NCBI GenBank assembly: GCA_023511565.1
Contig: JAIMBE010000001.1
Span: forward strand, 1-58,350
Length of the DNA stretch: 58,350 nt
Direction: 5' to 3'
DNA from: Bacillota bacterium
Lineage (GTDB): Bacteria > Acidobacteriota > Terriglobia > Acidiferrales > UBA7541
The translations under genes were made by a program, and so were the position numbers. The notes beneath the pieces were generated by a model, which saw only the letters and a program-made list of their open reading frames with translations, was not told where the DNA came from and ran no database searches. Shown piece after piece: positions 49,516-52,461 of this stretch. The first letter of the stretch is position 1; the number at the start of each line of letters is the position of its first letter.

Positions 49516-52461
49516 GTGGCGACTCCTGCAATCCAGTTCGAGCCCGGTGCCGTCGAAGCCGAAGTGCGCACCACGCTGCGCACCCTGCTGGAAGAGCTGG
49601 GCAGTCCGGCGGCCGAAACACTGGCGCAGCCGGGTACGCTCATCGCCGAACTGCATCTCGAGCGGGACCTCGGCCTGGGCAGCCTGGAGCGCGTCGAACT
49701 GCTGCTCCGACTCGGCCGGACCTTCCAGACGCAGTTGCCGGATCGGATCCTGGCGGAAGCGGAGACGGTCGGCGATGTTGTCGCTGCGGTGCTGGCGCAG
49801 GTGAACGGCCGCGTTGAAGCGGCCGAAGCGGCGGCAGAGCAGGCGGGCACAGAAGCCGCTACAGAGCTGGCCCCGTCGGCCCGCGCGCTCCCCTGGCCGG
49901 TGCTCCCAGCACGGGGCCTTCGCACACTGCGCCACCCGGAGGAAGCGGAAACCCTGCTCGAAGTGCTCTGGTATCGCGGTACACGGCCGGAGACCGCCGC
50001 AGCGCCACATCTTTACCTGTACGAAGAGGGTGGCCCGGAGGCCTCCAGCTATGCAGCGCGTGTGATTTCGAACGGCGAGCTGCTGGCCCGGGCTGCCGCG
50101 GTTGCCCTGTCGTTGCAGCAGCGTCGGCTGCGGGCAGGTGACCGCGTGGCGCTGATGCTGCCCACCAGCGCTGACTTTTTCTTCTGCTTCTTTGGCGTCC
50201 TGCTGGCCGGCGGAATTCCCGTGCCCATCTATCCTCCGTTCCGTGCCGACCGCCTCGAGGAATACGCCGCCCGGCAGGCGGCGATTCTGCGCAACGCCGA
50301 AGTGCGCTGGCTCATCAGCTTTGACCGCGCCGCTCGGATTGCCCGCCTGCTGCGACCGCGTGTGCCCTCGCTCGAGGCGGTGCTCACCGCGGCACAACTC
50401 ACCGCCCAGACAGCCGGCGCCACCGCGGTCGCACCGGTGCGAGCCGTGCGCGGCGAAGACCTGGCGTTCCTGCAATACACCTCGGGTTCGACCGGCCATC
50501 CCAAAGGGGTTATGCTGACCCACGCCAATCTGCTGGCGAACCTCCGCGCCATCTGCGAAACCGTGGGGCTCCGACCCGACGATGTCGGCGTCAGTTGGCT
50601 GCCGCTCTATCACGACATGGGATTGATCGGCACCTGGCTGCTGCCGCTCTATGCGGGTATCCCCACGGTGGTGATGTCGCCGCTGGCCTTCCTGACGCGA
50701 CCTGCGCGCTGGCTGTGGGCCCTGCACCACCACCGCGGCACGTTGACCGCAGCGCCGAACTTCGCCTTCGAGCTCTGCGCACGGAAAGTGGAGGACCGGG
50801 AACTGGCCGGGCTCGATCTTCGCCATGTGCGCGCAGCGCTGAACGGTGCCGAACCCGTCCATCCGGAAACCCTGTGCCGCTTTACAGAGCGCTTTGCTCC
50901 CTACGGCTGGCGACACGAGATGCATCTGCCGGTCTACGGCCTGGCCGAAGCCACGCTCGCTGTGACCATTCCCCTGCTGGGCCGCCCGCCGCTGCTGGAC
51001 TCCATCGAACGCGACACGTTTCAGCGCACCGGCCGCGCGGTTCCTGCGGCGGATGCGACCCGCGCCTCGGACGTTCAGACCTTGGTCAGCTGCGGGCGCC
51101 CGATCCCGCGGCACGAGGTCCGAATTGTGGACGACCAGGGCCAAGAACTCCCCGAGCGGACCGAAGGGCGGCTCTGGTTCCGCGGGCCCTCCGCCACCCA
51201 GGGGTATTTCCGCAACCCGTCCGACACCCGGGAACTGGTTCGGGACGGTGGCTGGCTGGACTCCGGCGACCGCGCCTATCGCGTTGGAGAGGAGATCTTC
51301 ATCACCGGCCGCGCCAAAGATGTGATCATCAAGGCCGGACGAAACATCGCGCCACAGGAAATCGAGGAACTGGTGGGGGAAGTTTCCGGTGTCCGCCCGG
51401 GCTGCGTCGTGGCCTTCGGTATTCCGGATGAACGCTCGGGCACCGAACGGCTGGTCATCACCGCCGAGGTTCGACCGGAATCCCTGCACCAGCGGGCGCA
51501 ACTGGCCGCGCGCATCAGCCACCGCGTCGCCGAAGCGCTGGGCCTGCCGCCCGACCACATCGAGCTGTTGCCGCCCCAGACCATCCCCAAAACCTCCAGC
51601 GGAAAACTTCGTCGCAGCGAAACCCGGCAGCTCTACCTGAGTGGCCGACTGGTGGCGGGACGCCCACCCGTCTGGTGGCAGGTGCTCCGGCTGACCCTCA
51701 GCAGTGCCGCACGCGCAACTCTGCGCACCGCCCGGCAAGCCCTGGTGCGGCTGTACGGCGTCTATGCCCTGCTGATGTTCGTTTTCTGGCTTCTGCCCAC
51801 CTGGGCGGTTATGCGATTGTTGCCGACGCGCCGTGCCGTGGTGCTGTTCACCTCGCGCCTTTCCCGCCTGTACTTTCGGCTGGTCGGGATTCCCATTCGT
51901 CGGCACGGGTTCGAACATCTGCAGCGACATCCCAACTCGGTGTTGGTGGCCAATCACACGAGCTACTTCGATGTTCTGGTCCTGATGGCCGCCCTGCCGG
52001 TGGAATTCCGTTTTGTCTCGAAGATCGAGGTTGCCTCGATGCCGTTGATCGGCGATTTTCTGCGACGCCGGGGCGATTTCGCCTTCGACCGCGGCGACCG
52101 CCAGCAGCGGCTGCGCCAGGCCGAGGAAGTCGAACGCTCCTTGCGCGCGGGCGACTGTGTGCTGGTGTTTCCCGAAGGCACCTTCACGCCTCACGACGGG
52201 GTTCGCCCGTTCCAACTGGGTGCGTTCAAGGCCGCGGTCGCCACCGGGCGGCCGATTCTTCCTGTGGCCCTGCGCGGCGTGCGTGAAATCCTTCGCGACG
52301 AAACGCTCCTCCCGCGGCCCGGATCCGTCGCGATCACGATCCTGCCGCCTATTTTCCCGGAGCCCGGCGCCGATCCGCGCGAACACTGGCGCGAAATCAT
52401 TCGGCTGCGGGATCAAACACGCACCAGCCTGGCCCCGCACACCGGCGAACCCCTCCTTTGA
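49516..52461 (+). CDS. Tri-domain fusion: N-terminal ACP-like domain, fatty-acyl-AMP/ACP ligase, TM segment and C-terminal PlsC/AGPAT acyltransferase (981 aa)
   Basis: Carrier motif LGLGSLERVELL (Ser at 49681-49683). AMP-binding YTSGSTGHPKG (50476-50508). Hydrophobic linker LYGVYALLMFVFWLLPTWAVM. HX4D NHTSYFD (51955-51972) and FPEGTFT. GTG start with GGGAGAGGA 6 nt upstream. Confidence 0.85.
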   Translation: MATPAIQFEPGAVEAEVRTTLRTLLEELGSPAAETLAQPGTLIAELHLERDLGLGSLERVELLLRLGRTFQTQLPDRILAEAETVGDVVAAVLAQVNGRVEAAEAAAEQAGTEAATELAPSARALPWPVLPARGLRTLRHPEEAETLLEVLWYRGTRPETAAAPHLYLYEEGGPEASSYAARVISNGELLARAAAVALSLQQRRLRAGDRVALMLPTSADFFFCFFGVLLAGGIPVPIYPPFRADRLEEYAARQAAILRNAEVRWLISFDRAARIARLLRPRVPSLEAVLTAAQLTAQTAGATAVAPVRAVRGEDLAFLQYTSGSTGHPKGVMLTHANLLANLRAICETVGLRPDDVGVSWLPLYHDMGLIGTWLLPLYAGIPTVVMSPLAFLTRPARWLWALHHHRGTLTAAPNFAFELCARKVEDRELAGLDLRHVRAALNGAEPVHPETLCRFTERFAPYGWRHEMHLPVYGLAEATLAVTIPLLGRPPLLDSIERDTFQRTGRAVPAADATRASDVQTLVSCGRPIPRHEVRIVDDQGQELPERTEGRLWFRGPSATQGYFRNPSDTRELVRDGGWLDSGDRAYRVGEEIFITGRAKDVIIKAGRNIAPQEIEELVGEVSGVRPGCVVAFGIPDERSGTERLVITAEVRPESLHQRAQLAARISHRVAEALGLPPDHIELLPPQTIPKTSSGKLRRSETRQLYLSGRLVAGRPPVWWQVLRLTLSSAARATLRTARQALVRLYGVYALLMFVFWLLPTWAVMRLLPTRRAVVLFTSRLSRLYFRLVGIPIRRHGFEHLQRHPNSVLVANHTSYFDVLVLMAALPVEFRFVSKIEVASMPLIGDFLRRRGDFAFDRGDRQQRLRQAEEVERSLRAGDCVLVFPEGTFTPHDGVRPFQLGAFKAAVATGRPILPVALRGVREILRDETLLPRPGSVAITILPPIFPEPGADPREHWREIIRLRDQTRTSLAPHTGEPLL

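Follow-up and report, generated by a model that had tools for sequence, protein, structure and literature searches.

In Escherichia coli, the bifunctional 2-acylglycerophosphoethanolamine acyltransferase/acyl-ACP synthetase Aas (b2836; ACP, acyl carrier protein) combines a PF01553 acyltransferase and an ANL fatty-acid-activating domain in one inner-membrane polypeptide, with ACP carrying the acyl chain between the two. ACP stays attached to Aas as a subunit during the re-acylation of 2-acylglycerophosphoethanolamine, and the bacterial PlsC, OlsA, and Aas enzymes take acyl-ACP donors. Fatty acyl-AMP ligases (FAALs) pass acyl chains to holo-ACPs, not to coenzyme A (CoA), and those that stand alone or are linked to polyketide synthases (PKS) or non-ribosomal peptide synthetases (NRPS) feed the ACPs of polyketide, lipopeptide, and mycolate machinery. 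The ether lipid enzyme ElbD of Myxococcus xanthus has adenylation, thiolation, and acylglycerolphosphate acyltransferase (AGPAT) domains (PMC9426513). Here, we analyzed a gene in a 58,350-nt stretch of contig JAIMBE010000001.1 (assembly GCA_023511565.1; the whole stretch is hereafter the window), the 981-aa product of which unites a carrier (ACP-like) domain, a FAAL-type ligase, membrane-anchoring helices, and a PlsC-like acyltransferase (Table 1).

We give a probability of about 0.6 to a general mechanism in which the FAAL-type domain would activate a fatty acid and load it in cis onto the carrier domain, from which the PlsC-like domain would transfer it to a lyso-glycerolipid. The architecture itself is not new to the literature, where a single passing sentence mentions the fusion of a FAAL to a lysophospholipid acyltransferase as an unexplained architecture (Patil et al. 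2021, eLife, PMC8460268).

Domain anatomy of the fusion protein

The gene opens with a GTG codon and continues as a single 981-codon frame in the open reading frame (ORF) list of the window and its translation, and the N-terminus (MATP..Q) is common to homologues in the alignment. A previous reading of this DNA from sequence only had divided the product into four elements, namely a carrier domain, a fatty-acid-activating domain, a hydrophobic linker, and an acyltransferase. The positions, the motifs, and the Ser56 codon at nt. 49681 were borne out by Pfam and the translation, with the PP-binding, AMP-binding, and Acyltransferase families all above their Pfam cut-offs, but the hydrophobic linker did not stand as a separate element (see below). 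The whole-protein AlphaFold2 (AF2) model had a mean predicted local distance difference test (pLDDT) score of 85.8 and a predicted template modeling (pTM) score of 0.75, and was confident over the domain junctions except for one flexible linker.

Table 1. Features of the fusion gene and of its flanks in the window.
Feature	Coordinates (nt)	Strand	Residues	Basis or remark
ACP/FAAL/membrane helices/PlsC-like acyltransferase gene	49516..52461, stop codon included	+	1-981	981-aa ORF
Shine-Dalgarno-like sequence GGGAGAGGA	49501..49509	+		6 nt 5' of GTG, read from sequence
Carrier (ACP-like) domain	49516..49800	+	1-95	Pfam PP-binding
Ser56 codon, predicted phosphopantetheine attachment site (LGLGSLERVEL)	49681..49683	+	56	motif and conservation
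Ala/Glu-rich flexible linker	49801..49920	+	96-135	variable length, low conservation
FAAL-type adenylation domain	49921..51651	+	~136-712	Pfam, NCBIfam, PDB, and Foldseek matches
FAAL-specific insertion	50968..51063	+	~485-516	alignments with Aas, 3pbk, and acyl-CoA ligase-like controls
Membrane-anchoring helices	51670..51885	+	719-790	hydropathy, AF2, alignment to Thermotoga maritima PlsC (TmPlsC)
PlsC/AGPAT-type acyltransferase catalytic domain	51886..52458	+	791-981	PF01553, TmPlsC 5kym
HX4D catalytic motif (H814-T-S-Y-F-D819)	51955..51972	+	814-819	motif and conservation
polA	46647-49268	-		divergent from fusion gene
167-aa secreted protein	52610-53113	+		signal peptide MRRLILLLGLCAAVVLPAAAQE, ~150 nt 3' of fusion gene
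Two small OMP_b-brl genes	53522-55210	+		3' of fusion gene
TonB-dependent receptor with CarboxypepD_reg domain	55742-58063	+		3' of OMP_b-brl genes

The ligase domain matched Pfam AMP-binding at residues 181–565 (E 1.3e-71), with two AMP-binding C-terminal models at residues 608–700 falling slightly below their cut-offs. The A3 motif (YTSGSTGHPKG, residues 321–331), the A5 motif (YGLAEA, residues 474–479), and the A10 lysine (K697) were invariant or nearly so in alignments of the family, including one with 78 further proteins from other phyla. The top NCBIfam model was the FAAL family PRK09192 (442 bits vs. a cut-off of 600), and the best ten also included PRK05850, PRK12476, and the FadD32 and FadD21 models; given that the cut-offs of the curated FAAL subfamilies were missed, the ligase belongs to none of them. 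In a sequence search of the PDB, the E. coli FAAL 3pbk was the best match (E 9e-96), followed by the 7r7e-g entries (which bear the label 'Polyketide synthase' in the sequence search and are titled as the FAAL domain of a Synechococcus olefin synthase in Foldseek), the Legionella FAAL 3kxw, FadD23, FadD32, and FadD28. Structural comparison with Foldseek likewise placed 3pbk first, with a template modeling (TM) score of 0.93 (target-normalized), a root-mean-square deviation of 2.6 Å, and an E-value of 2e-53; the first 29 matches were all FAALs, with acyl-CoA ligases appearing only from E 1e-34.

The ligase also carries the FAAL-specific insertion of ~30 residues, the inspection of which had been suggested earlier. 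When Aas of E. coli is aligned to the protein, a gap of 32 residues opens just after YGLAEA, at residues 485–516, while the same residues align to 3pbk with a gap of only two. In a joint alignment, family members of five other phyla had the insertion, and neither Aas nor two CoA-ligase-like proteins encoded in the window had it. The latter served as in-window fatty acyl-CoA ligase controls: a long-chain-fatty-acid-CoA-ligase-like protein (nt. 33886-35673, − strand; PRK06187, 251 bits) and a FadD11-like ligase (nt. 1387-3060, + strand). Both sequence and structural model, therefore, place the ligase nearer to biochemically proven FAALs than to acyl-CoA ligases, and support a predicted FAAL-type rather than CoA-ligase-type enzyme.

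The carrier domain is more divergent. Its Pfam PP-binding match (PF00550, residues 48–92; 29.3 bits vs. a cut-off of 20.8) is partial, covering profile positions 24–67, is 'faint' or 'weak' in many homologues, and is accompanied by weak matches to NCBIfam ACP models (E 1e-6). Conservation of the predicted attachment site is, by comparison, complete. Ser56 is kept in 120 of the 120 homologues listed from a search of a 5.8-billion-protein collection, which gave at least 120 full-length homologues, and the flanking L-G-L-G-S-L-E-R-V-E-L is almost invariant; among sequences from other phyla, all 74 that extend over this site likewise keep the serine. The motif reads GSL in the acidobacterial clade and mostly the canonical DSL elsewhere. 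AF2 predicts helices at residues 10–27, 32–37, 56–69, 76–81, and 85–109, the last extending into the linker, and Ser56 forms the N-terminus of helix 56–69 (helix II), which is the expected place for a phosphopantetheine arm. Judged on these features, the domain is a divergent carrier, yet one with the defining features of its kind. The linker that follows is predicted to be flexible, with pLDDT below 50 at residues 102–124.

The C-terminal acyltransferase was identified by PF01553 at residues 794–919 (101.7 bits vs. a cut-off of 23, E 3.6e-29) and contains, besides the HX4D motif, an FPEGT motif at residues 885–889. None of N813, H814, S816, D819, K836, E887, and T889 varies among the 120 listed homologues; across phyla (n = 79), N813, H814, and D819 remain invariant, with S816 and E887 each kept in 78 sequences and T889 in 72. 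By sequence, residues 715–981 matched PlsC of T. maritima (5kym) with an E-value of 4e-18. An AF2 model of the acyltransferase region alone (pLDDT 92, pTM 0.86) again returned 5kym as the best Foldseek match (E 7e-14, TM 0.72–0.75), followed by glycerol-3-phosphate acyltransferases, LpxM, and PatA. All 241 of 241 residues of 5kym were aligned to residues 715–981, and the two helices predicted by AF2 ahead of the catalytic domain (residues 719–766 and 772–790) thus correspond to the N-terminal two-helix anchor of PlsC itself. The supposed hydrophobic linker is, accordingly, part of the acyltransferase.

Within this anchor, the only strongly hydrophobic stretch of the protein has its core at residues 742–771 (hydropathy peak 2.0), and the second helix, 772–790, is Arg-rich and amphipathic. 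In 74 family members, a median of 115 residues separates the A10 motif of the ligase from the NHxSxxD motif. This spacer contains one dominant hydrophobic stretch, both flanks of which carry lysine and arginine (2.7 N-terminally, 3.9 C-terminally) and few acidic residues. From this sequence pattern, we infer that anchoring would be monotopic or interfacial, with both catalytic halves of the protein in the cytoplasm.

The curated NCBIfam models for acyltransferases of this kind all scored below their cut-offs. The highest was the TIGR00530 AGPAT domain (92 bits, cut-off 103), followed by two OlsA models (76 and 69 bits, cut-off 300), NF006386/PRK08633, acyl-[ACP]--phospholipid O-acyltransferase (65 bits, cut-off 1221), the E. 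coli PlsC model PRK15018 (49 bits, cut-off 501), the YihG model (21 bits, cut-off 260), and the two-domain Aas model PRK08043 (20 bits, cut-off 886). The rank of the OlsA models, second-best among the curated matches and above E. coli PlsC, raises an alternative in which the protein is a lyso-aminolipid O-acyltransferase that acylates the 3-hydroxyl of a lyso-ornithine or other amino-lipid with fatty acid from the fused ligase and ACP, and OlsA is indeed an acyl-ACP-dependent PF01553 enzyme (PMC11631085). We consider this quite unlikely, given that the scores lie far under the 300-bit OlsA cut-offs, the best structural match is PlsC, and no olsB-like N-acyltransferase gene recurs beside the gene in the clustered loci described below.

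A widely distributed family

The 120 listed homologues share 51–91% identity with the protein and are 935–1031 aa long; all 120 have AMP-binding and Acyltransferase domains, most have a recorded PP-binding domain, and the closest come from metagenome-assembled genomes (MAGs) of Acidobacteriota. A scan of GTDB with one genome per species gave at least 80 loci/species, and nearly all of the 80 loci listed match the query up to its last few dozen residues. Besides several orders of Acidobacteriota, the carriers of the gene include Gammaproteobacteria (Imhoffiella purpurea, Thiocystis violacea, Zobellella maritima, Marinobacter salicampi, Halomonas, Wenzhouxiangella, and Methylococcales), Alphaproteobacteria (Methylocystis, Mesorhizobium delmotii, and Hyphomicrobiaceae), Betaproteobacteria, Nitrospira, Myxococcota, Desulfobacterota, Methylomirabilota, and Entotheonella. 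Full-length identity is 42–50% in many Proteobacteria, Nitrospira, Myxococcota, and others. The family is, therefore, widespread in bacteria and not specific to Acidobacteria, and a function restricted to Acidobacteria was rejected on this distribution.

On finished RefSeq replicons of cultured bacteria, the protein is encoded by one gene annotated only as "AMP-binding protein". These orthologues include WP_095422956.1 of Paraburkholderia aromaticivorans (948 aa, with ERDLGLDSLARTELL), WP_111021735.1 of Burkholderia sp. JP2-270, and WP_012631269.1 of Methylobacterium nodulans. The agreement in architecture and motifs with the 120 listed homologues goes far past what chance would give. The recurrence of the uninterrupted layout in these homologues from metagenomes, in GTDB genomes of at least 80 species, and on finished replicons, together with an AF2 model that is confident across the junctions apart from the flexible linker, led us to reject an assembly or annotation artefact, such as a frameshift or mis-join that merged separate genes for the ACP, the ligase, and the acyltransferase; the chance of such an error is negligible. 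Of the conditions that the sequence-only reading had named as refuting it, a frameshift join and a carrier serine not kept in orthologues were thus both decided in its favor. One locus deviates in size, a Methylomirabilota MAG in which the tblastn match (nt. 6001-10403 of locus L030) spans 4.4 kb rather than the usual ~2.9 kb and in which a second related ORF (nt. 5827-7620) overlaps the start of the match; duplication or insertion in that genome, or splitting of the gene, could account for this.

We also asked where the acyltransferase subtype occurs; a search of 1.84 billion cluster representatives with the acyltransferase region as query gave 231 clusters at E <= 1e-30. Among the best 150 of the 231 representatives, 35 are at least 860 aa long and 31 of these 35 have the carrier motif. 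The other 115 vary continuously in length from 131 to 834 aa, and an A10-like ligase motif lies upstream in 41 of them; many of these shorter representatives probably derive from fusions cut off at the ends of short contigs. Taken together, the full-length representatives with carrier motif and the fragments indicate that this acyltransferase subtype occurs mainly inside the fusion.

This finding bears on whether the domains act as one line. They may instead work apart. In one version, the acyl chain loaded onto the cis ACP by the FAAL would leave it for an enzyme in trans; in the second, the acyltransferase would draw on ordinary acyl-ACP or acyl-CoA, and the fused ACP would serve for docking or regulation. 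The unusual N-terminal position of the ACP fits such a division, and no proof of channeling can be had from the sequence. The confinement of the acyltransferase subtype mostly to fusions speaks against it, as do the co-conservation of the three domains and their catalytic residues across phyla in the sequences examined, and the absence of a conserved partner gene from the clustered loci, and we hold it to be unlikely.

Proposed activation, tethering, and transfer

Activation of a fatty acid, its tethering in cis, and its transfer to a lipid is, in our view, the best available reading of this protein, and would proceed as follows. A phosphopantetheinyl transferase encoded elsewhere would first convert Ser56 to its holo form. 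The FAAL-type domain would use ATP and a free long-chain fatty acid to form an acyl-adenylate, and would then load the acyl chain in cis, as a thioester, onto the phosphopantetheine of the carrier domain. Borne on a disordered linker of ~40 residues, the loaded carrier could then swing to the PlsC-like domain, which its two N-terminal helices would hold against the inner membrane on the cytoplasmic side. There, the H814/D819 dyad would acylate a lyso-glycerolipid, such as lysophosphatidic acid or a lysophospholipid, at its free hydroxyl. In net terms, a free fatty acid would enter a membrane lipid with no need for CoA or the soluble ACP of the cell, and the private ACP would separate this acyl pool from fatty-acid synthesis.

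Several points weigh against this scheme. Should helix 742–766 span the membrane, the ligase and ACP would lie on the opposite side from the acyltransferase and the model would fail, although the positive charges on both flanks appear to argue against a spanning helix. The carrier is N-terminal to the ligase, whereas in known FAAL-ACP pairs it is C-terminal or in trans. The FAAL insertion has been described as a controversial indicator, with assignment needing biochemistry, in a paper on the AasS structure (PMC12086093). As every curated acyltransferase score fell below its cut-off, the acceptor cannot be named from the sequence. No gene for the lysophospholipid transporter LplT lies beside the fusion gene, and no major facilitator superfamily (MFS) gene was found among the adjacent window ORFs tested. 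Lastly, no characterized member of the family was found in full-text literature searches.

The more specific role of an Aas-like enzyme, which would re-acylate lysophospholipids and salvage fatty acids, is put forward tentatively, as we rate it somewhat below an even chance. Seen more broadly, the family may constitute a third, unrecognized route in diderm bacteria by which free fatty acids enter membrane glycerolipids, here via a FAAL, a fused private ACP, and a fused PlsC-like domain, next to those via FadD and acyl-CoA and via Aas or AasS with soluble ACP. We think this possible, at odds slightly short of even. If true, the acyl chains salvaged in this way would stay apart from CoA metabolism (β-oxidation) as well as from the ACP pool of fatty-acid synthesis. 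In a more radical variant, the acceptor may not be a phospholipid, and an undescribed acylated lipid may be made.

Should the mechanism be right, a one-protein system for fatty-acid salvage and membrane repair would be present in hundreds of bacterial species from several phyla, and a common "AMP-binding protein" would gain a function while providing a compact model of channeling from FAAL to ACP to membrane acyltransferase. It would also bear on the entry of exogenous fatty acids into membranes, and so on the bypass of fatty-acid-synthesis inhibitors, and would matter for the reading of environmental lipid biomarkers. A direct test is possible in cultured carriers of the gene, which include Paraburkholderia aromaticivorans, Methylobacterium nodulans, Methylocystis, and Marinobacter.

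Genomic setting and comparison with known systems

The genes around the fusion gene (Table 1) keep their order in its 91%-identical relative (locus L001), and do not in more distant acidobacterial relatives or in any proteobacterial one. To compare neighbors more widely, all ORFs of at least 90 aa from 87 loci were clustered, with recurrence counted over 85 loci. Excluding ORFs that overlap the fusion gene, the most recurrent neighbor family was present at no more than 13 loci. A small OMP_b-brl gene lies 3' of the orthologue in 13 of the 85 loci, all acidobacterial, usually along with genes for a TonB_C protein, a 104-aa Cys-rich protein, and a LOG-family protein; these recurrent neighbors occur only within one acidobacterial clade, which looks like plain synteny rather than a functional link. 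No neighbor family was conserved across phyla, and no phosphopantetheinyl transferase, LplT, OlsB, reductase, or ether-lipid gene recurred among the clustered neighbors. The only recurring MFS neighbor, a 420-aa transporter at 5 of the 85 loci, is ATG22-like and was rejected as an LplT partner. The fusion gene is, therefore, a stand-alone unit, and any partners that it needs would be on the polypeptide itself or among housekeeping proteins.

These neighbors are also relevant to a suggestion made from the sequence alone, that the protein helps to build the unusual lipids of Acidobacteria. In such a pathway, an unusual fatty acid (e.g., iso-diabolic acid) would be placed onto glycerol phosphate in the assembly of membrane-spanning or ether lipids. 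The window does appear acidobacterial, with its nearest listed homologues from Acidobacteriota MAGs, FAALs typically supply specialized lipid pathways (PMC8460268), and the domain content overlaps with that of ElbD. Against this, the family is kept at full length in the Proteobacteria, Nitrospira, Myxococcota, and other bacteria noted above, the protein has no reductase domain, and the gene has no neighbor conserved across phyla; in the window, it is surrounded by polA, outer-membrane protein (OMP) barrels, and a TonB receptor, with no elb, radical-SAM, or lipid-pathway genes among the annotated neighbors. A specialized-lipid role is, on balance, improbable, and the fusion gene probably helps little to explain the unusual lipids of Acidobacteria.

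A promoter scan around the fusion gene found no sigma-70-like site, and the terminator-like sites near the gene fell inside coding sequence, at about the rate of shuffled sequence. A 1157-aa antisense ORF (nt. 48967-52440, − strand) lies almost wholly opposite the fusion gene. Such antisense ORFs also form clusters across loci, as a consequence of the conservation of the sense gene, and we have taken this one as a shadow ORF typical of long open frames in G+C-rich DNA.

We noted several further features of these loci. The 167-aa secreted protein had no Pfam or NCBIfam match; a gene of the same length (167 aa) sits at the same place in L001 (nt. 11092-11595), a likeness by length and place only, and the protein may be another small outer-membrane barrel. 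An IF-2B-family gene (nt. 42809-44116, + strand) is followed by a gene resembling bacterial archaeo-eukaryotic release factors (baeRF family 10; nt. 44204-45415), a pair also kept in L001. At the far end of the window, the FadD11-like acyl-CoA-ligase-type gene is preceded by a polysaccharide pyruvyl transferase gene (nt. 49-1350). A 611-aa B12-binding/radical-SAM gene (nt. 3066-4898) begins 3 nt past the stop codon of the ligase gene, and its product matches TIGR04013 best in NCBIfam (72 bits, far below the cut-off); the ligase and B12/radical-SAM pair (nt. 1387-4898) could relate to acidobacterial lipid modification. Three orthologues are carried on megaplasmids, namely Paraburkholderia pBN1 (L089), Burkholderia sp. 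JP2-270 p2 (L090), and Methylobacterium nodulans pMNOD02 (L091), with neighbors of a stress type (universal stress protein, BON-domain proteins, Hsp20, KdpBC, MgtA, and, twice, DUF302). The context of these three loci may hint at stress-regulated expression. In L089, a second AMP-binding gene lies directly upstream of the orthologue.

Among described systems, Aas resembles the fusion protein in its pairing of domains and, if our proposal is right, in its logic, an ATP-driven re-acylation of lysolipids with free fatty acid. As the sequence-only reading had noted, the domain order in Aas is the opposite (acyltransferase at residues 15–137, AMP-binding at 233–568) and Pfam finds no PP-binding domain of its own in Aas, which uses soluble ACP, whereas the fusion protein has its own carrier. 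The ligase of Aas also lacks the FAAL insertion that the fusion protein has, and identity between the two proteins is only 28% for the ligase domains and 24% for the acyltransferase domains. The whole fusion protein scores 206 bits against NF006386/PRK08633 (cut-off 1221), a 1147-position model that bears the Aas name, with matched profile positions that suggest a longer, possibly transporter-fused form. In E. coli, lplT adjoins aas, unlike the arrangement here. By analogy, then, the fusion protein is proposed to work like Aas and is not a member of the Aas family, and its covalently fused ACP may be seen as a natural variation on the ACP that Aas keeps bound.

ElbD shares the adenylation, thiolation, and AGPAT domains, and differs in having a fatty acyl reductase domain that is essential for its chemistry. 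As the sequence-only reading had stated, the fusion protein has no reductase: no such family was among its Pfam matches at E <= 0.01, and none is listed for the 120 homologues. The ElbD carrier follows the adenylation domain, whereas that of the fusion protein precedes the ligase, and elbD belongs to an elbB-elbE cluster (bioRxiv 10.64898/2026.06.23.733905), whereas the fusion gene stands alone. The ligase-ACP-reductase-AGPAT order previously given for ElbD is not the layout given in published descriptions. By its published description, ElbD is set apart from the fusion protein, which is not a member of the ElbD family.

The FAALs 3pbk, 3kxw, 7r7e, and FadD32/FadD23 are the best matches to residues ~136–712, the insertion included. 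Unlike PKS- and NRPS-linked FAALs, the only downstream catalyst in the fusion protein is the PlsC-type acyltransferase. This domain, in turn, shares with the PlsC structure 5kym its fold, its N-terminal two-helix anchor, the HX4D and FPEGT motifs, and the other lysophospholipid acyltransferase motifs, and differs from PlsC in missing the curated PlsC cut-offs and in being fused to its own acyl-donor-generating module. The three-domain family is a variant of the multidomain lipid acyltransferases of the kind seen in Aas and ElbD rather than a categorically new one.

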